From: Deltaproteobacteria bacterium
GTDB lineage: Bacteria > Chloroflexota > Dehalococcoidia > Dehalococcoidales > BS750m-G39
Length of the DNA stretch: 64,000 bases
Direction of reading: 5' to 3'
Assembly (NCBI GenBank): GCA_030603275.1
Contig: JAUVYB010000006.1
Location: forward strand, 5,205-69,204
Below are positions 31,258-44,494 of the stretch, piece by piece. The notes under the pieces were generated by a model that ran no database searches, was not told where the DNA came from, and saw only the letters and a program-made list of their open reading frames with translations. The position numbers and the translations under genes were made by a program. How positions within the stretch are numbered: position 1 is the stretch's first letter; every line of letters begins with the position of its first letter.

Positions 31258-31698
31258 ATGCGTGTTGCTATTGGCTCTGACCACAGAGGGGTAGAACTGA
31301 AACAGTCTATTATCAACCTGCTCGAGGAAACGGGCCATAGCTACCAGGACTTCGGCAGTGACACCACTGAGTCGGTGGATTTTCCCGATTTTGCCTTGCA
31401 GGTGGCGAAGGGGGTGGCCAGGGGCGATTTTGAACGCGGCATCTTAATCTGCGATACCGGCATCGGTATGTGTATCGCCGCCAATAAGGTTAAGGGAATC
31501 AGGGCCGCCCTGTGCTACAATGCCTTTAACGCCCGCCGAGCCCGCCAGCATAACGACGCCAACATCCTCTGTCTGGGGGGGGGCGAAAAACAGCTGCAGG
31601 ACCCGGTATCGGAAATCGTTAGCGCCTTCCTCACCACCGAGTTCGAGGGGGGCAGGCACCAGCGCCGCATAGACAAGATAAAGGCCATGGAGGGCTGA
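31258..31698 (+). CDS. rpiB: ribose-5-phosphate isomerase B
   Basis: 146 aa. MRVAIGSDHRG...ILICDTGIGMCIAANKVKGIRAA is the RpiB/LacAB signature. Confidence 0.93.
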   Translation: MRVAIGSDHRGVELKQSIINLLEETGHSYQDFGSDTTESVDFPDFALQVAKGVARGDFERGILICDTGIGMCIAANKVKGIRAALCYNAFNARRARQHNDANILCLGGGEKQLQDPVSEIVSAFLTTEFEGGRHQRRIDKIKAMEG

Positions 31699-31723
31699 AT
31701 AGATACCTCCAAGGAGAGGGAAG

Positions 31724-31752
31724 TTGACAATAAATATGAACTGTGCTATCTT
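31724..31752 (+). promoter_or_regulatory. sigma70-type promoter of the ilv-leu operon leader
   Basis: TTGACA (31724-31729), 17 nt, TATCTT (31747-31752). The leader-peptide ATG follows 8 nt later, so the transcript is near-leaderless. Confidence 0.55.
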
Positions 31753-31760
31753 AACTTGTA

Positions 31761-31814
31761 ATGAACACGCAGAATGTCGTATTGGTACTTATTGTTATGA
31801 AACAAAGCCCGTGA
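31761..31814 (+). CDS. candidate ilv-leu leader peptide MNTQNVVLVLIVMKQSP
   Basis: A 17-codon ORF that I translated by hand. Codons 6-12 are an unbroken Val-Val-Leu-Val-Leu-Ile-Val run. The stop codon TGA (31812-31814) sits inside a segment that can pair with the terminator stem. Confidence 0.6.
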   Translation: MNTQNVVLVLIVMKQSP

Positions 31815-31834
31815 GTGGGGTTTCGCCACAACAT

Positions 31835-31860
31835 GCCGTCCCCACGGGACGGCTTTTTTT
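31835..31860 (+). terminator. intrinsic terminator (attenuator) upstream of ilvD
   Basis: GCCGTCCC (31835-31842), loop CAC, GGGACGGC (31846-31853), then T7 (31854-31860). It lies 26 nt upstream of the ilvD ATG. Confidence 0.8.
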
Positions 31861-31885
31861 ATATAATATAATTAGGAAATAAAAT

Positions 31886-33553
31886 ATGAAAAGCGACGCT
31901 GTTAAACGAGGTCTAGAGCGTGCCGGGCACCGGGCCCTGCTGCACGCCCTGGGCTGGAGCAAAGCCGATATAGACAAGCCGCTTATCGGGGTAATCAACA
32001 GCTTTACCGAGATTGTCCCCGGGCATATGCACCTGCCCCAGATCGCCCAGGCGGTTAAGGCCGGAGTGTGGAGCGGGGGAGGCGTCCCCTTTGAGGTCAA
32101 TACTATCGCCGTCTGCGATGGCATTGCCATGAACCACCCGGGCATGAAATACAGCCTGCCCAGCCGGGAGCTAATCGCCGATTCGGTGGAGATAATGGCC
32201 GAGGCTCACGCCTTTGACGCCTTAGTTTTTATACCCAACTGCGACAAGATAATTCCCGGTATGCTGATGGCAGCGGTAAGATTGAACCTGCCGGCTATCT
32301 TCATCAGCGGCGGCCCCATGCTGGCCGGGCGCCGGGAGGTCAACGGTAAGGTGGATAAGATTGACCTTAGCACTATATTTGAGGGGGTAGGCCAGGTAGC
32401 CGCCGGCAGGATGAAGCCGGAGGAACTGGAGGAGTTGGAGGGGCTTGCCTGCCCCGGCTGCGGCAGCTGCTCGGGGATGTTTACCGCCAACACCATGAAC
32501 TGCCTGACCGAAGCCATGGGCATGGGGCTGGCCGGTAACGGCACCATCCCGGCGGTGGATGCCCGGCGGCTTGAGTTAGCCCAAAAAGCCGGACAGCAGG
32601 TGATGAGGCTGCTGGCCGAGAATATACGACCCAGGGATATTATTACCCGGGAGGCGGTTGATAACGCCTTTGCCGTTGATATGGCGCTGGGGGGCAGCAC
32701 CAATTCCGTCCTGCACCTCATGGCCATAGCCCACGAGGCCGGGGTTGATTTCCCGCTGACTCTGGTGAACAAGATAAACCAGCGCACCCCCCACCTGGCC
32801 AAGATGAGGCCGGCCGGCGACTATCACCTTGAAGACCTGGACCGCGCCGGCGGCATACCGGCCGTGATGAAGGAATTAAAAACGCTATTAAACCTGAAGG
32901 TGAAGACAGTCTCCGGGAAAGCGCTATCTGACGTTATCGCCGACAGTAATAATAATGATAAAGAGGTTATCCGCCCCTTTGCCCAGCCTCATTCCCCTAC
33001 CGGCGGCCTGGCCATCCTCTTCGGCAACCTGGCACCGGAGGGAGGGGTGGTCAAAAGGGCGGCCGTCGCCCCGGAGATGATGGCCCACCGGGGAGCAGCC
33101 CGCGTCTTTGATTCCGAAGAGGAAGCTACCAAAGCTATTATGAGCAAGAAAATAAACGCGGGAGAGATAGTGGTCATCCGTTACGAGGGGCCTAAAGGCG
33201 GGCCGGGGATGAGGGAGATGCTCACCCCGACCTCATTGCTCAGCGGCATGGGCATGGATAAAGAGGTGGCCCTTATCACCGACGGGCGTTTTTCGGGGGC
33301 GACGCGGGGGGCGGCTATCGGCCATGTTTCCCCCGAAGCCGCCAGCCGCGGACCTATCGCCGCCTTAAGGGACGGGGATATAATCAAGATTGATATTGAA
33401 AACTATAAGCTCGACGTGGAGCTTAGCGATAAAGAGATATCCGAGCGCCTGGCAAAACTGGCCGAGTTTGAGCCTAAAGTTAAGACGGGTTACCTGAAGC
33501 GCTATGCCGAGAAGGTAACATCAGCCAGCACCGGCGCCGTGTTTACTAGATAG
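31886..33553 (+). CDS. ilvD: dihydroxy-acid dehydratase
   Basis: 555 aa with IlvD/Edd family motifs ([34 protein letters not shown]). Confidence 0.97.
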
Positions 33554-33562
33554 GGGGCTATT

Positions 33563-35293
33563 ATGAAATTAACCGGGGCACAAATGATAGGTGAGAGTCT
33601 GGTGAAGGAGGGGGTGGAGGTTATATTTGGCATACTGGGCGGATCTCTTCTGCCCCTGTATGACGTCCTCCCCCACTACCCCCAACTCCGTCATATACTG
33701 GTACGCCACGAGCAGGGAGCAGCCCATGCCGCCGACGGCTACGCCCGGGCTACTGGCAAGGTCGGCGTGTGCTTAGCTACCTCCGGGCCGGGAGCGACCA
33801 ACCTGGTAACCGGCATCGCCAACGCCTGCCTGGACTCAGTTCCTATGGTGGCCATAACCGGCCAGGTAGCCCGACCTTTTATCGGCAAGGACGCCTTCCA
33901 GGAGGTGGATATTACCGGCATCACCATGCCCATAACAAAGCATAACTACCTGGTGATGGATGCCGCTTCAGTGCCTGAGACAATTAAAGAGGCCTTTCAC
34001 CTGGCCAGGACAGGGCGGCCTGGGCCGGTGCTTATCGACCTGCCCAGGGACGTCCAGATAGACCAGGCGGAGTTTAACTACCCGAGCAAGCCTAACCTGC
34101 CAAGCTATAAGCCAATCCTTAAGGGGCATCCGGCCCAGATTAAGAAGGCGGCTAAGCTGATAAATGAAGCCAAGAAACCGGTTATTATCGCCGGGAGGGG
34201 GGTTATTATATCCGCCGCCTTTGCCGAACTAAAAGAGCTGGTGGAGCAAGCCCAGATACCATTGGTTACCACGCTTCTGGGCATCAGCTGCTTCCCCGAG
34301 TCTCATGTTCTGAGTTACGGGATGCTGGGGATGCACGGTATGGCTTACGCCAATATGGCGGTTGACGCCGCTGACCTGATAATTGCTATCGGGATGAGGT
34401 TTGACGATAGAGCTACGGCCAAGGTAAGCGATTTCGCTCCTCACGCCCATGTTATCCATATTGATATCGACCCGGCGGAAATCGGCAAAAACGTACGCGT
34501 GGACGTGCCGATAGTCGGTGATGTGAAGGCGGTTCTTAAGGAATTAAATAAACTGATTGTTGCCGCCAAGCGTATTGACTGGATTCGGCAGCTTGATGAC
34601 TGGCGCAGGGAACATCCATCACTGGTTATCAGGCCCGGCGAAAGTCTCCTGCCCCAGTACGTAATTCGCCAGATTTATGAGGTAACCAACGGTGAGGCGA
34701 CTATCGTCACCGGGGTGGGACAGCACCAGATGTGGGCGGCTCAACACTACTGGTACGATAAACCCAATACCTTCATCTCGTCGGGTGGGCTGGGCACGAT
34801 GGGCTTTGGCCTGCCGGCGGCCATCGGGGCTAAAGTGGGTTGCCCCAACGACACCGTCTGGTGTATTGACGGCGACGGCAGCCTGCAGATGACGATACAG
34901 GAACTGGCCACCGCCGTTCAGGAAAAGGTGGCGGTCAAGATTGCCGTTCTCCACAACAACTACCTGGGAATGGTGAGGCAATGGCAGGAGATGTTCTACG
35001 GTAAGCGATATGTGGCCACTCCACTGAGCAGCCCCGACTTCGTCAAGGTTGCCGAAGCCTACGGCCTACCCGGGTTGAGGGTGGAACGCCGAGAAGAGGT
35101 GGCGCCGGCTATCCAGCAGGCAATGGCGGAGCCGGGACCGTTCCTGATTGATTTTATCGTCGAACCGGAGGAGAATGTCTATCCGATGGTGCCACCGGGG
35201 GCGTCTCTGGCCGAAGTCCTTGAGGAACCAGAAAAGAAGACCAAACCTAAAGCAGTTAAGGATTCAGCCAAGCTGCCGGTGAGCAATATCTAA
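33563..35293 (+). CDS. ilvB: acetolactate synthase large (catalytic) subunit
   Basis: 576 aa with a ThDP-enzyme layout. The N-terminal motif is HEQGAAHAADGYAR and the ThDP motif is GDGSLQM...NN. Confidence 0.95.
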   Translation: MKLTGAQMIGESLVKEGVEVIFGILGGSLLPLYDVLPHYPQLRHILVRHEQGAAHAADGYARATGKVGVCLATSGPGATNLVTGIANACLDSVPMVAITGQVARPFIGKDAFQEVDITGITMPITKHNYLVMDAASVPETIKEAFHLARTGRPGPVLIDLPRDVQIDQAEFNYPSKPNLPSYKPILKGHPAQIKKAAKLINEAKKPVIIAGRGVIISAAFAELKELVEQAQIPLVTTLLGISCFPESHVLSYGMLGMHGMAYANMAVDAADLIIAIGMRFDDRATAKVSDFAPHAHVIHIDIDPAEIGKNVRVDVPIVGDVKAVLKELNKLIVAAKRIDWIRQLDDWRREHPSLVIRPGESLLPQYVIRQIYEVTNGEATIVTGVGQHQMWAAQHYWYDKPNTFISSGGLGTMGFGLPAAIGAKVGCPNDTVWCIDGDGSLQMTIQELATAVQEKVAVKIAVLHNNYLGMVRQWQEMFYGKRYVATPLSSPDFVKVAEAYGLPGLRVERREEVAPAIQQAMAEPGPFLIDFIVEPEENVYPMVPPGASLAEVLEEPEKKTKPKAVKDSAKLPVSNI

Positions 35294-35314
35294 GCCGGGA
35301 AGAGAGGTGATAGC

Positions 35315-35851
35315 ATGCCCAAACATACTATAATAGCCCTGGTGGAGGATAAGCCTGGGGTGCTCAACCACATGGCCAGCCTTTTCCGCCGGCGAGGCTT
35401 CAATATTGAAAGTATTGCCGTGGGACGCAGCGAAGTGCCCCATCTATCGCGCATGACCCTGGTCGTCAACGGGGGCAACACCATGGTGGAACAGGTCAGG
35501 AAGCAACTGGATAAGGTAGTGGATGTGGTCAAGGTCTCCGATATCACCAGCGATAAGGTGATTACCCGGGAACTGGCCTTAATTAAAGTAAAAGCCACTT
35601 CCTCTACCAGAAGCGAGGTTATGCAGATTGTAGATATATTCCGGGCTAACATAGTAGATGTTGCCGCTGACTCGGTAACCGTTGAGGTTACCGGCGATGA
35701 GAATAAAATCGATTCCCTGCTTAACCTGCTGCGCGGTTTCGGCATCAGGGAACTGACCAGGACGGGGCGCATCGCCCTGACCCGGGGTGAAACAAAGCCT
35801 TTGCCGGTGAAGAAGCCGCCCAAGGCAAAAGGGCAGAAACCGACTAAATAA
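35315..35851 (+). CDS. ilvN: acetolactate synthase small (regulatory) subunit
   Basis: 178 aa with the ACT domain HTIIALVEDKPGVLNHMASLFRRRGFNIESI. It lies directly after ilvB. Confidence 0.93.
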   Translation: MPKHTIIALVEDKPGVLNHMASLFRRRGFNIESIAVGRSEVPHLSRMTLVVNGGNTMVEQVRKQLDKVVDVVKVSDITSDKVITRELALIKVKATSSTRSEVMQIVDIFRANIVDVAADSVTVEVTGDENKIDSLLNLLRGFGIRELTRTGRIALTRGETKPLPVKKPPKAKGQKPTK

Positions 35852-35867
35852 TTGAATATTAAGGAGT

Positions 35868-36869
35868 TTGACGATGGCCAAGATATATTATGATAAAGAT
35901 TGCAACCTGAAGCTGCTCGATGGTAAAACAGTGGGTATTGTCGGCTACGGCAGCCAGGGGCACGCCCACGCCCAGAACCTGAGGGACAGCGGCTGCCAGG
36001 TGATAGTGGGCGAAGCCAAGGGAACGCCGGGCTGGAAGAGCGCCCAAAAGGCCGGATTTAAGGTGATGACCGCCGCCGAGATGGCCAGGGAAGCCGATAT
36101 TATTGTAATGCTGGCGCCGGATAACCTGCACCGCGATATTTACTACGGGGCAATCGAAAAGGGGCTGGCCAAGGGCAAGATGCTGATGTTCGCCCACGGC
36201 TTTAATATTCATTACGGGCAGGTGGTGCCCCCGGCTAACATCGATGTGGCCATGATAGCCCCCAAGTGCCCCGGCCATATACTGAGACAGCTTTACACCG
36301 AGGGCGCCGGCTCGCCGGCCATAGTAGCCGTGCACCAGGACGCTTCGGGCAAGGCCCTGGCTACCGCACTGGCCTACGCCGAGGGCATCGGCTGCGGGCG
36401 GGCGGGGGTGATTGAGACCACCTTTGCCGAGGAGACCGAAACCGACCTCTTCGGTGAACAAACGGTGCTATGCGGGGGTATTTCATCGCTGATAAAGGCG
36501 GGGTTCGAGACCCTTGTGGAGGCGGGCTACCAGCCGGAGATAGCCTACTTTGAGGTCTGTAACGAGCTTAAGCTCATCACTGACCTGATTTACCAGGGGG
36601 GCCTGAGCTATATGCGCTATTCGGTTAGCGATACCGCCGAGTACGGCGACTACACGCGGGGACCCAGAGTTATTGATGAAATGGTCAAAGAAGAGATGAT
36701 GGCCATCCTGGCCGAGATTCAGGACGGCACTTTCGCCAAGGAATGGATACTGGAAAACCAGGCCGGGCGCCCGGTGTATAACGCCCTGAAGAGGATGGAC
36801 GAGGAGCACCCGCTTGAGCTGGTGGGGCGAGAGCTGAGGGAGATGATGCCCTGGCTCAAGAAGAAATAG
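35868..36869 (+). CDS. ilvC: ketol-acid reductoisomerase (class I)
   Basis: 333 aa; motifs [17 protein letters not shown] and the LFGEQ..LCGG region. Confidence 0.97.
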
Positions 36870-36964
36870 TAAATAATTTAATTGGTAACTAAAATGCCTA
36901 AACATATGACCACGCAATATAACGAAGTTCCCTTTTCTGGGGGAAATAAACTCATCCTTATTAG

Positions 36965-36988
36965 CCCCTCTCCAATATAGGGGAGGGG
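36965..36988. repeat. family B hairpin, partial copy
   Basis: CCCCTCTCC (36965-36973), loop AATATA, GGGGAGGGG (36980-36988): 9 bp including one G-U pair. A second hairpin, CGGCGGGGAAAA/TTTTCCCTGCCG, follows. Confidence 0.6.
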
Positions 36989-37065
36989 TAAACGCGGCCG
37001 GCGGGGAAAAGATTTTCCCTGCCGATAAATCCACTTAATGAAGTTTTTTCTCCCAGGAGGATACT

Positions 37066-38583
37066 ATGAATAAAGTAATAATCTTTGATACCACACTAAG
37101 GGACGGGGAACAAGCGGCGGGGGGTACGTTAAATGTCCAGGAGAAGCTGGGTATAGCCAGACAACTGGAGAGGCTGGGTGTTGACGTTATCGAGGCCGGT
37201 TTTCCCATCAGTTCGCCGGGCGATTTTGAGGCGGTAAGCCTCATCGCCAAAGAGGTGCGCAAGCCGGTAATCTGCGGGCTGGCCCGGGCTCACCCCGACG
37301 ATATAGACCGTGCCTGGGAGGCCGTCAAAGAGGCGGCTCACCCCCGGATACACGTGTTCCTTTCCTCTTCGGATATACACCTGGGTTATCAGTTGAAAAA
37401 AAGCCGTGAGGAGGTGCTGAACACCGCCCGGGATATGGTGGCACGGGCCAAGAAGTACACCGACGACATCGAGTTTTCCCCGATGGACGCCAGCCGCACC
37501 GAGCCCGAATATATCTACCAGATACTGGAGGCGGTGATTGACGCCGGAGCCACCATGGTGAATATCCCCGATACCGTGGGCTATGCTATCCCCGGCGAGT
37601 TCGGCAACCTGATTGAGGGCATTATCAACAATGTGCCTAATATCAAGAAGGCCGTTATCAGCGTCCACTGCCACAATGACCTGGGGCTGGCCGTGGCCAA
37701 CAGCCTGGAGGCGGTGAGGCGGGGAGCCCGGCAGGTGGAGTGTACCGTCAACGGCATCGGGGAGAGGGCGGGCAACGCCTCCATGGAGGAAATCGTCATG
37801 GCCATCAAGACCCGCCAGGACTTTTTCCACCTGGCCACTAATGTTAATACCAACCAGATATATAAAGCCAGCCGACTGGTCAGCGACCTGACCGGCTTTG
37901 TCGTTCAGCCCAATAAGGCCATCATCGGGGCCAACGCCTTCCGGCATGAGTCTGGAATCCACCAGGACGGCGTCATCAAGATGCCGATAACCTACGAGAT
38001 AATGGACCCTAAAACGGTGGGCATACCCTCCAGCAGTCTGGTGCTGGGCAAGCTCAGCGGGCGGCACGCCTTCAAAGAGCACCTGGCCGAGTTGGGCTAC
38101 AGCCTGAACGAGGAGGACTTCAACCGTGCCTTTACCGCCTTTAAAGAGCTGGCCGATAAAAAGAAGGGAGTCACCGATAGGGACATCGAGTCCCTGATCG
38201 CCGAGGAGCAGCGCACCATATCGGAGGCGTATCACCTTGACCGGGTACAGGTCTCCTGCGGCGACAGGGGTATCCCCACCGCCGCCGTCAGGCTTATCGG
38301 TCCGGAGGGTGAGGCGCTGGCTGATGCCGCCCTGGGCACCGGCCCCGTTGACGCCGTGTACAAGGCTATCAATAAAATAGTGAACGTGCCCAACGAGCTT
38401 GCCGAATTTACCGTTAAATCGGTAACCGAGGGTATTGACGCCATCGGGGAGGTGCTGGTAAGAATAGAGAGCGAGGGCATAACCTACACCGGGCGGGGCG
38501 CCGATACCGACATCATCGTTGCCAGCGCCAAAGCCTACATGAATGCCCTTAACCGGCTGTTAGCCACTAAGAAAGGAAGCTGA
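37066..38583 (+). CDS. leuA: 2-isopropylmalate synthase
   Basis: 505 aa. It has DTTLRDGEQ, the [12 protein letters not shown] motif and a C-terminal LeuA dimerisation/regulatory domain. Confidence 0.9.
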
Positions 38584-38585
38584 TA

Positions 38586-39839
38586 TTGACTCTAGTCGAG
38601 AAAATACTGGCCGAACATAGCGATAACAAAGGGGTAAGCCCTGGAGAGTTCATCAACGTCAGGGTAGACCTGGTTATGTCTAACGACATTACCGCCCCTA
38701 TCGCCATCAGGGAGTTTAAGCGGCTGGGGGTAGACCGGGTCTTTGACCCCGGCAAGGTGGTAATGGTGCCCGACCACTTCGTGCCCAATAAGGACATCGC
38801 CTCCGCCGAGCAGGCCAAGCTTATGCGGGAGTTCGCCCACGAGCAGGGGATAATCTACTTTGAATTGGGTGAGATGGGTATTGAGCACGTGCTTCTGCCC
38901 GAGCAGGGGCTGGTGCTGCCGGGGGAGGTGGTCATCGGGGCTGATTCCCACACCTGCACCTACGGGGCTCTGGGCGCCTTTGCCACCGGCATGGGCTCGA
39001 CCGATATCGCCATGGCCATGGCCACCGGTGATATATGGATGAAGGTGCCCCACACCATCAGGCTGGTTTACCACGGAAATCTGGGGGAATGGGTGGGCGG
39101 TAAAGACCTTATACTGCATACCATCGGCGATATCGGTGTTGACGGCGCCCTCTATTCGGCAATTGAGTTTACCGGCGAGGCGATAGAAGCCCTGTCCATG
39201 GACGGCCGGTTTACCATGGCTAATATGGCCATTGAAGCCGGGGCTAAAGCCGGCATTTTCGGGGTGGATAACAAGACGCAACTTTATGTAAAATCAAGGG
39301 CCGAGCGCTCCTACCTGGTATACGAGCCGGATAACGGTGCGGAATACTCAAATGTTATTGAGTATGATGTCTCCGATATAGAGCCCCAGGTTGCCCTACC
39401 CCACTCGCCGGCTAATGCCAGGCCGGTGAGCCAGGTGGGGAACATAGAAATTAACCAGGCAGTAATCGGCAGCTGCACCAACGGCCGCATCGAGGACATG
39501 AGAATTGCTGCCCAGATTTTGAAAGGACGGAAAATACACCCGGGGGTGCGGTGCATTATCATCCCCGGCTCACAACAGGTGTACCTAGACGCCCTGGCCG
39601 AGGGCATGCTGGGAGTATTTATCCGGGCCGGGGCGGTGGTCAGCACCCCCACCTGCGGTCCCTGCCTGGGTGGACATATGGGAGTTCTGGCCGATGGCGA
39701 GAGGTGCGTCTCTACCACCAACCGCAACTTCGTCGGCAGAATGGGCAGCACCAAGGCAGAAGTCTATCTGGCCAATCCGGCGGTAGCAGCGGCCAGCGCG
39801 GTAATGGGTAAGATTGCCAGCCCGGAGGAGATTTTATAA
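38586..39839 (+). CDS. leuC: 3-isopropylmalate dehydratase large subunit
   Basis: 417 aa, TTG start. Aconitase-family Cys ligands are present (SCTNGR, TCGPCLG). The N-terminus MTLVEKIL is typical. Confidence 0.95.
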
Positions 39840-39891
39840 AAACCAAAAAAAGTAAGGGATTTTGAGAGGAGCTTGGTAGAGGAATAATGCT

Positions 39892-41190
39892 ATGGGGTGG
39901 CTCATTGTTTTTGGCATTATACTTGCCATTTGGTTCATTACTTGGCTGAGCAACAGGCTATCTAACCTACGGGGGATGGCAAAGAAGTATGCTGAATTGA
40001 AGCCGAAATTTGACAGCTTGAATACTTATAAAGACGAATTGGAACTCACAAACAAAGAATTAAAGCACTGGGCTGATAAATATCATGAGATGAAATCGGT
40101 GTTCGATAGGTTAGATAAATACAAGGGTGAATTAGAGTTAAAAGAGTCCCGACTAAGAAATAAAGAAGAAACATTTGAGACATTAGTCAAAGAAAAAACA
40201 GCTGGTTTTCCTTGGTTAACTTGGGCTTATGATAATTACTATGAACTTGAGGACCTAAAGATGGAGGCCTATCTTGAAAGCAAACCCCATCCAGCAATAA
40301 AAGCCGCCGAACACCATAAACAGATTTCTAAAGAGCGTCGTGAAGCTGAAAAAGCAGCAAGGTTGGCAAATTACCTCTTGGATTATTGTCGTTATCTAGC
40401 TCCTTGGTTAGATGAATACATAGGCTTGGAAGCTGATGAGTTAGACGAAATTATAAAAGAGATACACTCAGCGTGGGAGAAGAAAGAGAAGGAGTTTGAT
40501 GAGGAAGTAAAACGACATTTTGGGCCTAAATATGAAGGACTTACGCCGACCGAGAAATTGCAGAAAAAACTGGATTGGTATTGGGGGAAACCTAATAAAT
40601 CCAATTGGCAAATTGGAAGGGATTACGAGAGATATAGCGGGTATTTATATGAGATAAAAGGCTGGAATGTCAACTATCACGGTAAGAAGGGATTTGAAGA
40701 CTTGGGGCGGGACTTGGTTTGCAAAAAAGCTAATGCTGTAGAGATAATCCAGTGTAAGCGCTGGGCGCAAGAGAAAATAATCCATGAAAAGCATATCTAT
40801 TATTTATTTGGCACCACAGTTGAATATTTTATTGAAAACTTTAGAGGCGAGGACTTACAATTAGCCCTATTTCCTAGCCTTGCTCGAAAGAGAAATGTAA
40901 TCCCTAAATTGGTTACTACGATAGATGTTTCCCCAAAAGCTGAACAAGTAGCGAAAGTGCTTGGGGTGGTAATAGAAAAAGTACCGTCGGAGCCCTATCC
41001 CTCGGTAAAATGCAATGTAGCTAGAAGGACGGGGGAGAAAATCTTTCACCTTCCTTTCGACCAGCAGTATGATACCATATTAATAGAGGAAGAAAGACTA
41101 GAATGCTATGTTGAAACCGTTGCGGAGGCAGAGGCCCTTGGATTTCGGCACGCATACCGCTGGAAGGGCGAAGTTGCGCAAATCCCATAA
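39892..41190 (+). CDS. membrane-tethered coiled-coil protein with Mrr-like PD-(D/E)xK restriction-endonuclease domain
   Basis: 432 aa. The N-terminal TM segment is WLIVFGIILAIWFITWL. It has a long K/E-rich coiled coil with an internal duplication (KFDSLNTYKDELELTNKEL / VFDRLDKYKGELELKESRL). The nuclease core reads GWNVNYHGKKGFEDLGRDLVCKK..AVEIIQCKRW. The gene is strongly AT-rich against its flanks. Confidence 0.75.
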   Translation: MGWLIVFGIILAIWFITWLSNRLSNLRGMAKKYAELKPKFDSLNTYKDELELTNKELKHWADKYHEMKSVFDRLDKYKGELELKESRLRNKEETFETLVKEKTAGFPWLTWAYDNYYELEDLKMEAYLESKPHPAIKAAEHHKQISKERREAEKAARLANYLLDYCRYLAPWLDEYIGLEADELDEIIKEIHSAWEKKEKEFDEEVKRHFGPKYEGLTPTEKLQKKLDWYWGKPNKSNWQIGRDYERYSGYLYEIKGWNVNYHGKKGFEDLGRDLVCKKANAVEIIQCKRWAQEKIIHEKHIYYLFGTTVEYFIENFRGEDLQLALFPSLARKRNVIPKLVTTIDVSPKAEQVAKVLGVVIEKVPSEPYPSVKCNVARRTGEKIFHLPFDQQYDTILIEEERLECYVETVAEAEALGFRHAYRWKGEVAQIP

Positions 41191-41210
41191 ACACACTGCA
41201 AAGGGGATTG

Positions 41211-41288
41211 AAAGGGGCGAAGCCCCTTTAGAAAAATAATCTTCCCTCTCCCCTTTCTAAGGGGAGAGGGATAAAGGGTGAGGGGTTC
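41211..41288. repeat. twin-hairpin intergenic repeat (family B), copy 2
   Basis: AAAGGGGC-GAA-GCCCCTTT (41211-41229), then CCCTCTCCCC (41244-41253), loop TTTCTAA, GGGGAGAGGG (41261-41270), then ATAAAGGGTGAGGGG. The order and spacing match 4821-4896. Confidence 0.8.
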
Positions 41289-41293
41289 CTAGA

Positions 41294-41794
41294 ATGCTAA
41301 AAGGTACGGTCCATAAATACGGGGCTAATGTAGATACCGACGCTATCATACCGGCGCGCTACCTTAACGTATCTGACCCGGCGGAGTTGGCCAATCACTG
41401 CATGGAAGATATTGACGAGGACTTCGTTAAGCGGGTCAAGCGGGGGGATATAATGATGGCCGCCACCAACTTCGGCTGCGGCTCATCAAGGGAGCACGCC
41501 CCACTGGCTATCAAGGCGGCGGAAATTTCCTGTATAATAGCTAAAAGCTTCGCCCGCATCTTCTTCCGCAATGCCATAAATATTGGCTTACCACTACTGG
41601 AGTGTGACCAGGCGGTGGATAAGACCGAGGCGGGCGATACTCTGGAAGTTGACCTGTCCAACGGCAGGATAAAAAACCTGACCAATGGCATGGAGTTTGA
41701 GGCAAAAGCCTACCCCGATTTTATGGCGGAGCTTATCTCCGCCGGCGGGCTGGTTGAGTACACCAAAAAAAGACTAGATAGCAGGAGAGTTTAG
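41294..41794 (+). CDS. leuD: 3-isopropylmalate dehydratase small subunit
   Basis: 166 aa, short archaeal/Dehalococcoidia-type LeuD ([26 protein letters not shown]). Confidence 0.95.
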
Positions 41795-42889
41795 ATGCAA
41801 TTTGAACTGGTAGTTTTACCCGGTGACGGCGTTGGTCCCGATGTTACCACCGAAGGAATCAAGGTGCTGGAGGCGGTAGGCAAGAGGTTCGGCCACCGCT
41901 TTAAACTGCACTATGGACTGGTGGGTGGGGTTGCCATTGACAAAGAGGGGACAGCCCTGTCTGATAATACCGTGATGATGTGCCAGGACGCAGATGCGGT
42001 ACTGCTGGGAGCGGTGGGCGGCCCCAAGTGGGACGACCCCCTAGCTAAAGTCCACCCCGAAGACGGGCTGCTGGCACTGCGCAAGGAGCTGGGGCTTTTC
42101 GCCAACCTGCGCCCGGTCAAGGTATCCCCGGTTCTGGTTGACTCAACCAACCTTAAGCCGGATGTCATCCGGGGGGTAGACCTTGTCTTTGTCCGGGAGC
42201 TTACCGGAGGTCTCTACTTCGCCCGCCCCAAGAGACAGTGGAAGACATCCCGGGGGAGGCGGGCTACCGATTCCATGACCTACTCCGAGCATGAGATTGA
42301 GCGCATCGTCCGGGTGGGCTTTGAGCTGGCCAGGGGCCGGCGCCAGAAATTGACCTCGGTGGACAAAGCCAATGTGCTTGAGGCCTCCCGCCTCTGGCGG
42401 CAGGTAACCATGGAGGTCGCCCCGCAATACCCCGATGTCGAGTTGGACCACATGCTGGTTGATGCCTGTTCCATGCGGCTGATTCAGAACCCGACCTATT
42501 TCGATGTGCTGGTTACCGAAAACACCTTCGGCGATATTCTCACCGACGAGGCCTCGATGCTGGCCGGCTCTATGGGAATGCTGCCCTCGGCCAGTCTGGC
42601 CGGGGTACCGCGGGAGGGAGTTAATATATTCGGTATGTATGAGCCGATTCACGGCAGCGCCCCCCGCCGCGCCGGACTTGACATGGCTAACCCCATCGCT
42701 ATTATCCTCAGCGTGGCCATGATGCTCCGCTATTCCTTCGGCCTGGCTGAAGAGGCGCAGACCGTTGAGACGGCGGTTGACAAGATGTTAAATGAGGGTT
42801 ACCGTACCTATGATATAATGGACGAAGGCAAAACAAAGGTGGGGACAAAGGGGATGGGAGACATAATAACCGAGAAGGTGGAAGGCTAG
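41795..42889 (+). CDS. leuB: 3-isopropylmalate dehydrogenase
   Basis: 364 aa; motifs NLRP, VRELTGG and [15 protein letters not shown]. Confidence 0.97.
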
Positions 42890-42892
42890 AAA

Positions 42893-44494
42893 TTGTCTAA
42901 AGTGCAACTTTACGATACCACACTGCGGGATGGCACGCAGAAAGAGGGCGTTTCTTTCTCCGTGGTTGATAAGCTTAATATTGCCCAGAAACTGGATGAG
43001 CTGGGTATCCACTTCATCGAAGGAGGCTACCCCGGCTCCAATCCCAAGGATGACGAGTTTTTCCAGAAGGCAAAGAAGCTGACTCTGGCCAACTCGGTGC
43101 TGGTTGCTTTTGGCAATACCAGGCGAGCTAAAGTTAAAGCAGAAGCAGATACCAACCTCCAAGCCCTGGCCAATGCCGGGGTGAAAGTGGCTACCATTGT
43201 CGGCAAGAGTTCCGATTTGCAGGTTACCAGGGTTCTGAAAACCACTCTGGAGGAAAACCTGAGCATGATTGCCGATTCTGTAGCCTATCTCAAGTCAAAA
43301 GGGCTTTCGGTTATCTTTGATGCCGAGCATTTCTTTGACGGCTTTAAGCATAACCCCGATTATAGCCTGCGCTGTTTAACCGCCGCTGCCGAAGCCGGGG
43401 CAAGCTGCCTGGCGCTCTGTGATACCAACGGAGGTACGCTTCCTGGCGAAATAGCCGACGCTATCGGGGCGGTTAAAAAAGTGACCTCGGTACCCCTGGG
43501 AATTCATGTTCATGATGATAGCGGTCTGGCGGTAGCCAACAGCCTGGCGGCGGTAAACGCTGGAGTAACTCAGGTACAGGGTACCATCAATGGCTACGGC
43601 GAGCGCTGCGGCAACGCTAACCTGTGTTCTATTATCCCCAACCTGAAACTCAAAATGGGCATCGATTGCATTACTGATGAGCAATTAAGCAGGCTGGCCG
43701 AGGTATCCCACTTTGTCAATGAGGCAGCCAATCTCGCTCCCGATACCTCTTTGCCCTATGTCGGAGCCAGTGCCTTTAGCCATAAGGGCGGGCTTCATGT
43801 TTCCGCCACGATGAGGTGGAATGAGAGCTATCAGCATATAGACCCGTCCAAAGTTGGCAACCGGCAAAAAGTGGTGGTTTCCGAGCTATCAGGCAAGGGA
43901 AACATCTTATACAAGGCGAAGGAACTGGGACTGAACTTGCCCCCGGAAGGCAAGGAGGCAAAAAAGCTGGTGGAGCAGGTCAAGCTGATGGAGAGCCGCG
44001 GCTTCCAGTATGAGAACGCCGAAGCCTCCTTTGAGCTGCTCATACAGCGGGCCAGACCGGATTACCAGTCTCCCTTTGAACTGGTTGACTTTATGGTGGT
44101 GGTGGAGAAGAGGCGGCGTGCGCCCGTGAAGGGAAGCCCGGAGGAGATACTATCCGAGGCGATGGTTAAGGTTAGGGTGGGCAAGGAGGTAATGCACACC
44201 GTGGCCGAGGGTAACGGCCCGGTTAACGCTCTGGACCAGGCGCTGCGCAAATCGCTGCTGAGGTTTTACCCCAGCATAGCTGAAGTAAGACTGGTCGACT
44301 ATAAGGTACGCATCCTTGAGGAAACCGTGGGCACCGGCGCCCAGGTTCGGGTACTTATCGAGTCCACCGACGGGGTTGACGAGTGGCACACCGTCGGCGG
44401 CTCAACCAACATCATTGAGGCCAGCTGGCTGGCTTTAGCCGACAGCCTTGAATACTGGCTCCTAAAACAAAAAGGAGGTGGTAAAGATGGATGA
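42893..44494 (+). CDS. cimA: (R)-citramalate synthase (LeuA-like type 2)
   Basis: 533 aa, TTG start. MSKVQLYDTTLRDGTQKEGVSFSV...GGYPGSNPKD matches the CimA-type subfamily rather than LeuA. A second LeuA paralog at the end of the leu block fits the citramalate route to isoleucine. Confidence 0.82.
   Translation: MSKVQLYDTTLRDGTQKEGVSFSVVDKLNIAQKLDELGIHFIEGGYPGSNPKDDEFFQKAKKLTLANSVLVAFGNTRRAKVKAEADTNLQALANAGVKVATIVGKSSDLQVTRVLKTTLEENLSMIADSVAYLKSKGLSVIFDAEHFFDGFKHNPDYSLRCLTAAAEAGASCLALCDTNGGTLPGEIADAIGAVKKVTSVPLGIHVHDDSGLAVANSLAAVNAGVTQVQGTINGYGERCGNANLCSIIPNLKLKMGIDCITDEQLSRLAEVSHFVNEAANLAPDTSLPYVGASAFSHKGGLHVSATMRWNESYQHIDPSKVGNRQKVVVSELSGKGNILYKAKELGLNLPPEGKEAKKLVEQVKLMESRGFQYENAEASFELLIQRARPDYQSPFELVDFMVVVEKRRRAPVKGSPEEILSEAMVKVRVGKEVMHTVAEGNGPVNALDQALRKSLLRFYPSIAEVRLVDYKVRILEETVGTGAQVRVLIESTDGVDEWHTVGGSTNIIEASWLALADSLEYWLLKQKGGGKDG

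Follow-up and report, generated by a model that had tools for sequence, protein, structure and literature searches.

A probable leaderless leader-peptide attenuator upstream of the ilvDBNC-leuACDB-cimA operon of a Dehalococcoidia genome

The stretch of DNA considered here (64 kb, hereafter the window) comes from a Dehalococcoidia (Chloroflexota) genome and carries, between rpiB and ilvD, a compact array made of a promoter, a very short open reading frame (ORF) rich in Val, Leu and Ile codons, a GUGGGG box and an intrinsic terminator. It is highly probable, judging from the sequences of the window and of its relatives, that the ilvDBNC-leuACDB-cimA operon, which governs the synthesis of branched-chain amino acids (BCAA), is controlled by this array through ribosome-mediated transcription attenuation on a leader peptide. 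An attenuator acting through a leaderless mini-ORF had been proposed from the window sequence alone (hereafter the original prediction), and this proposal is supported by the conservation of the ORF, its start position, its Val/Leu/Ile run, the box and the terminator in 22 related Dehalococcoidia loci, with substitutions of a coding type and a fitting geometry. Classical ribosome-mediated attenuation, whose leaderless form has so far been documented in Actinobacteria, would thereby be extended to the Chloroflexota (class Dehalococcoidia). What makes the element noteworthy is its compactness, a predicted leaderless start, which is uncommon in the phylum, and the existence of sister leaders devoid of the ORF. 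Its features, all on the plus strand, are the following:

31724..31729 (+), -35 hexamer TTGACA, invariant in 23 of 23 ORF-bearing leaders
31744..31752 (+), extended -10 element TGcTATCTT (TG at 31744-31745, hexamer TATCTT at 31747-31752), separated from the -35 hexamer by a 17-nt spacer
31759..31761 (+), predicted transcription start, placed by promoter geometry 7-9 nt past the -10 hexamer, giving a 5' untranslated region (UTR) of 0-2 nt in the window
31761..31814 (+), leader ORF MNTQNVVLVLIVMKQSP*, 17 codons plus TGA
31776..31796 (+), regulatory run GTC GTA TTG GTA CTT ATT GTT, 7 consecutive Val/Leu/Ile codons
31815..31820 (+), GUGGGG box directly after the stop codon, putative 5' strand of the antiterminator, GUGGG being nearly invariant
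31825..31826 (+), GC, putative inner antiterminator pairs with GC at 31835-31836, found in the fold of the nascent RNA, weak and specific to the window
31840..31845 (+), CCCCAC, putative antiterminator 3' strand, comprising the upper part of the terminator 5' arm and the loop
31835..31853 (+), intrinsic terminator hairpin GCCGUCCC-CAC-GGGACGGC, with CAC as loop
31854..31860 (+), U7 tract

The mini-ORF MNTQNVVLVLIVMKQSP* lies where the original prediction had placed it, with its ATG at 31761 and its end at 31814. It is the only ATG-initiated ORF of at most 30 codons with a run of at least 6 Val/Leu/Ile codons in the six frames of the 64 kb. Since it is unique in the window and only 0.08 such ORFs with a run of at least 7 are expected from shuffled windows, its presence goes beyond chance. 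Relatives were collected by a scan for IlvD, retaining one genome per species, which yielded 80 loci, all from metagenome-assembled genomes of Dehalococcoidia/Chloroflexota, with IlvD proteins 71-94% identical; an exact-sequence look-up of the IlvD protein of the window returned no record. The mini-ORF is found at the same place in 22 of these 80 ilvD loci, and the IlvD proteins of these 22 are 72-94% identical; together with the window this gives 23 leaders and 22 distinct nucleotide versions. In all of them it takes the form M-x(3-5)-[V/L/I]5-7-x(2-5)-stop and comprises 12-17 codons, as illustrated by the peptides MNIELVILVIHT, MKRNQIILVLVIYT and MNTLYVVLVLIDDKNR of three relatives. The leaders therefore display, between promoter and ilvD, the short ORF with clustered end-product codons by which leader-peptide attenuators are recognized, and this form supplies annotation with a naming rule for a gene of 12-17 codons that escapes gene callers.

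The coding nature of the ORF was examined in a translation-blind MAFFT alignment of the ORF-bearing leaders (alignment A1). Over window codons 6-12, the mean column entropy amounts to 0.89, 0.32 and 1.23 bits at codon positions 1, 2 and 3, respectively. Codons 8-11 all have an invariant T as their second base (0.00 bits) and vary at positions 1 and 3; more generally, the columns of this alignment that are invariant within the ORF are second codon positions. Leucine codons swap among TTG, CTG, CTA and TTA, Val and Ile codons replace each other, and the alignment gaps located within the Val/Leu/Ile run measure 3 or 6 nt. Across 22 distinct ORFs, the Val/Leu/Ile core is retained and the ends of the peptide drift freely, so that conservation extends to the ORF and its regulatory codons but not to the remainder of the peptide. 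As far as can be judged from the alignment, this substitution pattern is the one expected of regulatory codons and differs from what a structured RNA or a functional micro-protein would show.

The same pattern bears on a reading in which promoter, ORF and terminator constitute an independent small gene located beside ilvD, producing either a small RNA (sRNA) of ~100 nt or a hydrophobic micro-protein of 17 aa. A strong promoter and a strong terminator of its own would be expected to yield an abundant transcript of ~100 nt, the core of the peptide is indeed hydrophobic, and the Listeria element Rli60, discussed below, was first annotated as an sRNA. However, only the Val/Leu/Ile run is kept while the peptide ends vary, as in regulatory codons and not as in a folded or membrane peptide. 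Moreover, the unit always accompanies ilvD, even when the upstream gene differs, and no conserved promoter lies between the terminator and ilvD. An independent small gene is therefore very unlikely, and the attenuator remains the preferred interpretation of the ORF.

The promoter coordinates of the original prediction, TTGACA-17 nt-TATCTT, are right, and a promoter scan (score 10/12, TG present) adds that the -10 element is of the extended type. The -35 hexamer sits in a block, TTGACAATAAAT, that is kept in most of the related loci possessing a leader, and T, G, T, A and the final T of the -10 element are invariant in alignment A1. The start of the spacer, ATAAAT after TTGACA (window 31730-31736), is also conserved in both ORF-bearing and ORF-less leaders, which is unusual for a spacer; these bases may bind a transcription factor or tune promoter strength, on top of the attenuator.

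The distance from the -10 hexamer to the ATG is 8 nt in six leaders, including that of the window, 9 nt in 14, 10 nt in two and 6 nt in one. If transcription starts 7 +/-1 nt after the hexamer, the 5' UTR is predicted to be only 0-3 nt long across the 23 leaders. As the ATG is located only 6-10 nt after the hexamer, a Shine-Dalgarno sequence cannot fit. The proposal of a leaderless mini-ORF is in keeping with this spacing in the window (8 nt) as in the 22 relatives (6-10 nt), with a start position predicted from promoter geometry.

The terminator has likewise been confirmed at 31835-31860, with its 8-bp stem and T7. The stem GCCGTCCC/GGGACGGC comprises 8 pairs, 7 of them G-C, with a free energy of -14.9 kcal/mol, and its core, CCGTCY-N5-RGRCGG, has no second copy in the window. 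Fifty-three distinct leaders, both ORF-bearing and ORF-less, share the conserved hairpin (alignment A3, window 31836-31852 plus 52 others), and three of its upper pairs show compensatory changes. The stem base CCG/CGG is invariant and CCGUC...G(A/G)CGG nearly so in these 53 leaders, despite IlvD identities of 71-94%; such a constraint on the sequence of the stem exceeds the need of an ordinary intrinsic terminator. In all terminator-bearing leaders but one (L070, 98 nt; relatives are designated by locus numbers), the interval between terminator and ilvD measures 14-37 nt and contains a Shine-Dalgarno sequence. Since the terminator-bearing leaders harbour no conserved promoter in this interval, ilvD must be transcribed through the terminator. 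An intrinsic terminator thus separates the leader ORF from ilvD, which comes first in the operon.

The hairpin and its T7 could also be read as the mere terminator of the tsaC-rpiB unit, with the mini-ORF as a chance frame. The hairpin does lie 137 nt past the rpiB stop codon, and rpiB is the upstream neighbour in 14 of 19 ORF-bearing loci. But a consensus-like promoter separates rpiB from the hairpin in 56 loci where it is conserved, the element is retained where rpiB is not a neighbour, and the ORF has a coding signature and a chance expectation of 0.08 per window. This assignment is extremely improbable and has been rejected on account of the intervening promoter and of the retention of the element without rpiB. 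Indeed, the leader travels with ilvD and not with rpiB, which is absent upstream in 5 of the 19 ORF-bearing loci having enough flanking sequence.

The segment that would oppose the terminator was sought by the original prediction in CCCGTGAGTGGGG (31808-31820), which spans the stop codon (31812-31814), and two alternative pairings had been offered for it. One of them, GUGGGG:CCCCAC, is conserved, each of its five core pairs being kept in 18-21 of the 23 leaders; 79.7% of the cells are paired, versus 27-66% when the partner is slid. The other, CCCGTG with CACGGG (31843-31848), is a true complementarity in the window but is restricted to its closest subgroup: CCCGUG occurs only in the five leaders ending ...AGC CCG TGA, the other subgroups having CGGUGA or TAA, and this pairing was rejected as a general feature. 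The helix had also been described as short (6 bp). This applies to the window, where the core comprises 5-6 bp, but most relatives have longer helices with inner pairs involving the rest of the 5' arm. Where the apex of the terminator deviates, the box deviates to match, as in L050 (GGGGAU:GUCCCC), L034 (GGACGGCU:GGCCGUCU) and L004/L009 (GUGAG:CUCAC). In an alignment-free comparison, boxes are more complementary to their own apex than to randomly reassigned apices (p = 0.012 for ORF-bearing leaders, 0.01 for ORF-less leaders and 1e-4 combined, with permutations that ignore phylogeny). That GUGGGG:CCCCAC is the exact antiterminator helix can, on balance, be regarded as fairly probable.

The positions that a ribosome would occupy fit this pairing. 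Counted from the first base of the last Val/Leu/Ile codon, the box begins at 19-23 nt in 22 of the 23 leaders (17 nt in L034, whose box is different), while the stop codon shifts by 9 nt; counted from the first base of the stop codon, the box ends at 7-15 nt in 22 of the 23. With a ribosome footprint of ~12-15 nt, which is an in-silico assumption, this spacing masks the box when the ribosome is at the stop codon and frees it when the ribosome is stalled, and constrained folds agree. The footprint-masked folding proposed by the original prediction was carried out on a nascent RNA ending at the terminator loop, the 3' arm being still untranscribed, with the ribosome either stalled or placed on the stop codon (+15 nt masked). 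It gave an antiterminator in the stalled state, with the box paired to the terminator 5' arm and loop (-11.0 kcal/mol in the window, -10.7 to -16.6 kcal/mol in relatives). Placing the ribosome on the stop codon abolished this pairing in 22 of the 23 sequences, L019 being the exception.

In addition to the elements, conservation and spacing observed in the leaders, we infer the transcription start, the translation of the ORF, the coupling of ribosome and RNA polymerase and a regulation by BCAA supply, which can be assembled in the following scheme. The strong extended -10 promoter would start the transcript at most ~2 nt from the ATG, and a 70S ribosome would initiate on this leaderless 5' end. 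When charged tRNA-Val, tRNA-Leu and tRNA-Ile are ample, the ribosome would reach the TGA and its footprint would cover the adjoining GUGGGG. With the box covered, the terminator 5' arm would be free, the 8-bp hairpin and U7 would form, and transcription would stop after ~100 nt, 25 nt short of ilvD. A shortage of any one of the three charged tRNAs would stall the ribosome in VVLVLIV, its footprint ending ~6-10 nt upstream of the box. The freed box would then capture CCCCAC and form a few inner pairs while the 3' arm has yet to be made; the terminator would be blocked kinetically and RNA polymerase would read into ilvD. If real, such a device implies tight transcription-translation coupling and the loading of 70S ribosomes on the nascent 5' end in a largely uncultured group. 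With ~100 nt, it would rank among the smallest attenuators of its kind and could serve as a compact model.

Several observations weigh against this scheme. The terminator state is more stable than the antiterminator state in all 23 leaders, by 0.3-15 kcal/mol (~9 kcal/mol in the window). Equilibrium switching has therefore been rejected, and the switch must be kinetic, as in classical attenuators. This would be a tight race. A pause hairpin is not obvious, and the 5' end on which the ribosome has to load is only ~100 nt away from the U-tract. The energy of the antiterminator is no better than that of mononucleotide shuffles of the spacer (mean z -0.7; in the window z -1.5, with 8% of the shuffles as good), because a G-rich spacer beside a C-rich arm pairs by composition alone. 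The original prediction had called for a comparison of conservation and covariation among relatives. The Val/Leu/Ile run of the ORF and the box proved conserved, but within the ORF-bearing group column-wise covariation does not go beyond shuffles for the antiterminator, nor does covariation for the terminator; it is not seen because both strands are simply conserved. In L019 (853-963), a premature stop (MNSNYAILVLVT*) leaves the GUGGG box 17-21 nt beyond the stop codon and hence outside the footprint, a geometry that predicts weak or constitutive read-through. In those Chloroflexi genomes for which leaderless translation has been detected, only ~5% of the genes are predicted to use it (PMC3160421). 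Finally, the conservation of the mini-ORF among relatives that keep the terminator, on which the original prediction had made its case depend, is found in the 22 loci described above but fails in 33 further ones, which possess the promoter and the terminator core, many of them with a GGUGGG-type box, and no conserved ORF. The terminator, and in many of these loci the box as well, can therefore occur apart from the peptide.

These ORF-less loci are the following:

L011, L012, L015-L018, L020, L021, L023, L024, L026, L030-L032, L035-L038, L040, L042
L045, L046, L048, L049, L051, L056, L058, L066, L070, L072, L074, L075, L077

In their leaders, only ~50-65 nt separate the -10 hexamer from the U-tract (e.g. 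L015:2876-2970), and the rpiB-ilvD gap measures 115-171 nt (with an outlier of 260 nt) versus 182-209 nt in ORF-bearing loci. The promoter TTGACAATAAAT...TGnTAnnnT is common to these leader types upstream of ilvD. Three subtypes can be distinguished:

ORF-less leaders of the GGGCUGAAGGUGGGAUUUCGG type
ORF-less leaders of the Dehalococcoidaceae type, with a 5'-terminal ACGGGCU complementary to AGUCCGU in the terminator 5' arm
ORF-less leaders of the short ACUAGCAUGGCCU type

Inspection of the ORF-less leaders revealed no tiny conserved ORF, and RNAalifold applied to 16 of them found no conserved structure besides the terminator; a conserved first hairpin, CUGAA...UUCAG, was rejected as being supported neither by RNAalifold nor by inspection. 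In a neighbour-joining tree of IlvD, the ORF-bearing leaders fall into a main clade (L001-L010, L013 and the window) and no fewer than five scattered groups interleaved with ORF-less ones, a distribution that suggests repeated loss, or possibly gain, of an ORF segment of ~45 nt.

These sister leaders feed a different interpretation, in which the GUGGG box and the invariant terminator form an autonomous switch responding to another effector, such as an RNA-binding protein, a small ligand or start-site/nucleoside triphosphate (NTP) sensing, the mini-ORF being accessory or irrelevant. Besides the 33 ORF-less loci with the same promoter and terminator, many with the box, it draws on the interleaving of both leader types in the IlvD tree and on the invariance of the CCG/CGG stem sequence across 53 leaders, beyond what a plain terminator needs. 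The complementarity of box and apex also exceeds permutation in the ORF-less group (p = 0.01). Yet an irrelevant ORF would not be expected to be under purifying selection of a coding type, nor to keep a fixed spacing to both promoter and box. Furthermore, RNAalifold on the 16 ORF-less leaders shows the terminator alone, no Rfam family matches the window or 20 related loci, and a candidate binding protein was not identified. Such an autonomous switch is considered improbable. Equally doubtful is its evolutionary version, in which box and terminator (CCGUC...GRCGG) would be an ancient, Dehalococcoidia-specific module acting alone, the ORF having been repeatedly added or lost and the ORF-less leaders sensing BCAA without a ribosome. 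The effector in such a ribosome-free module might be a metabolite, a tRNA end or another protein; to our knowledge, no riboswitch for branched-chain amino acids has been described. If this were true, the element of the window would be a hybrid form linking both kinds. For the leader-peptide attenuator favoured here, the ORF-less sister leaders provide a natural comparison to assess the contribution of the peptide, and they might hide a different sensor.

The ORF-bearing family is itself diverse. In a subgroup whose ORFs comprise 12-14 codons (L003, L005-L008, L010, L013, L025, L041 and L067), a local hairpin located after the stop codon, CG(G/A)CC-(G/A)GUG-GGUCG, sequesters part of the GUGGG box. 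It could correspond to the classical segment 1:2 hairpin (anti-antiterminator). Being absent from the subgroup of the window, it was rejected as a part of the mechanism there, and the family includes both three-segment and four-segment designs.

The relationship of the element to known systems was addressed by database and literature searches. At gathering thresholds, no Rfam family was detected in the whole window or in 20 related loci. With E-values up to 10, the best hit of a search of the region was Phe_leader, with 25.6 bits against a threshold of 55 and mainly over the terminator; the gathering score was reached by none of the Rfam leader families, among them Leu_leader, Phe_leader, His_leader, Thr_leader, Trp_leader and leu/phe leader. 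No T-box match was found at E-values up to 10 in 31600-32000, so that the element is not assigned to the T-boxes either. A T-box is also unlikely because a leader of ~100 nt is too short for Stem I and a specifier loop, and both a T-box and a pairing of UGGG with the tRNA acceptor end were rejected for want of support. The literature searches found no report of a leader-peptide attenuator in Chloroflexota. The original prediction had spoken of classical enterobacterial logic in an unusual lineage: the lineage is new, but the mechanism is not, as BCAA leader peptides also occur in Actinobacteria, where they are leaderless, and in Firmicutes. As read here, the element works like the attenuators of Corynebacterium and Listeria and is not a sequence member of any curated family.

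The enterobacterial leaders of ilvGMEDA, ilvBN and leu depend on a Shine-Dalgarno sequence, encode peptides of ~28-32 aa and possess a 1:2 pause hairpin and long antiterminators. They follow the logic proposed here, in which a run of regulatory codons positions the ribosome and thereby selects antiterminator or terminator, with a multivalent control by Val, Leu and Ile. Beyond enterobacteria, BCAA leader peptides are established or predicted in Corynebacterium, Mycobacterium tuberculosis, Listeria and Staphylococcus aureus. In the ilvBNC leader of Corynebacterium glutamicum, which encodes the IlvL peptide MTIIRLVVVTARRLP, transcription is described as starting 1 nt from the start codon (Morbach et al. 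2000 via PMC11857589), and the ilvB1NC leader of M. tuberculosis is related to it (PMC13236596). According to the same secondary account, IlvL is encoded by a short Ile/Val/Leu ORF placed before BCAA genes and devoid of a ribosome-binding site, as in the window, where transcription is likewise predicted to start at the start codon or within a few nucleotides of it. In that account the IlvL ORF is also followed by alternative terminator and antiterminator hairpins and gives a short terminated transcript, as predicted here. The account describes a leader of 292 bp with three hairpins, including an anti-antiterminator, whereas the leader studied here has ~100 nt, an antiterminator core of 5-6 bp and, in the subgroup of the window, no clear first hairpin. 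Furthermore, Corynebacterium belongs to the Actinobacteria and not to the Chloroflexota, no sequence or Rfam relationship is detectable, and, unlike ilvBNC, the operon of the window begins with ilvD and also includes leu genes and cimA.

Along with IlvL, the closest known parallel is Rli60 of Listeria monocytogenes (PMC5864092), which encodes a BCAA-rich leader peptide, of 13 aa, directly upstream of an ilv-leu operon that also begins with ilvD. Its antiterminator is weaker than its terminator (-10.3 versus -17.1 kcal/mol; PMC5864092), as in the window (-11.0 versus -14.9 kcal/mol). However, Rli60 has a ribosome-binding site, a four-segment structure and repression by CodY and is experimentally proven, whereas the element of the window is known from its sequence. 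In Staphylococcus aureus, a leader peptide and a terminator also precede ilvD in the ilv-leu operon (PMC5794164); unlike here, the peptide has 26 aa, is Leu-rich and is preceded by a 5' UTR, with CodY acting upstream (PMC5794164). The T-box of the Bacillus subtilis ilv-leu operon likewise reports tRNA charging through a choice in cis between terminator and antiterminator, and T-boxes do occur in the bacterial class of the window. In Dehalococcoides, they are reported only for ileS and trp genes (trpE, trpB-like) (PMC2494555). A T-box binds tRNA directly, whereas sensing by the translating ribosome is proposed here.

A third type of leader, found in 11 loci, has a different promoter-proximal sequence and neither terminator nor ORF:

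L039, L043, L047, L054, L055, L059, L062, L073, L076, L078, L080 (~70 nt before ilvD)

It consists of the promoter TTGACGYTAGATAGG-N-TATGYTATGTT, a conserved block, ACGCAACATAATTYATTT, and then a Shine-Dalgarno sequence; the block may be an operator for a DNA-binding regulator. In L014, L052 and L065, ilvD begins 8-38 nt past rpiB with no promoter, leader or terminator, and attenuation of ilv is therefore dispensable in some Dehalococcoidia. A metagenome scan with the pattern TTGACAATAAAT-N9-13-TANNNT-N5-11-ATG, which is unspecific, returned at least 120 unrelated AT-rich matches, and none among the matches listed had the terminator.

The surroundings of the element in the window are as follows, rpiB forming with tsaC, also upstream, the tsaC-rpiB unit:

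31258-31698, rpiB, upstream flank
31874-31877 (+), AGGA, ribosome-binding region of ilvD, whose start codon is at 31886-31888
31886..44494 (+), putatively regulated operon
31886-33553 (+), ilvD
33563-35293 (+), ilvB
35315-35851 (+), ilvN
35868-36869 (+), ilvC
37066-38583 (+), leuA
38586-39839 (+), leuC
39892-41190 (+), unrelated ORF of 432 aa between leuC and leuD
41294-41794 (+), leuD
41795-42889 (+), leuB
42893-44494 (+), cimA-like (citramalate-synthase-like) gene

The order ilvDBNC-leuACDB-cimA given by the original prediction is thus correct, except that it did not mention the extra ORF separating leuC from leuD. This ORF looks like an insertion into the operon. Its 432-aa product has no NCBIfam match and a borderline Pfam match to Mrr_cat (restriction-endonuclease-like, E = 3.5e-4), and a perfect 13-bp inverted repeat, TCCCTCTCCCCTT-AGA-AAGGGGAGAGGGA, lies 3' of it at 41243-41271.

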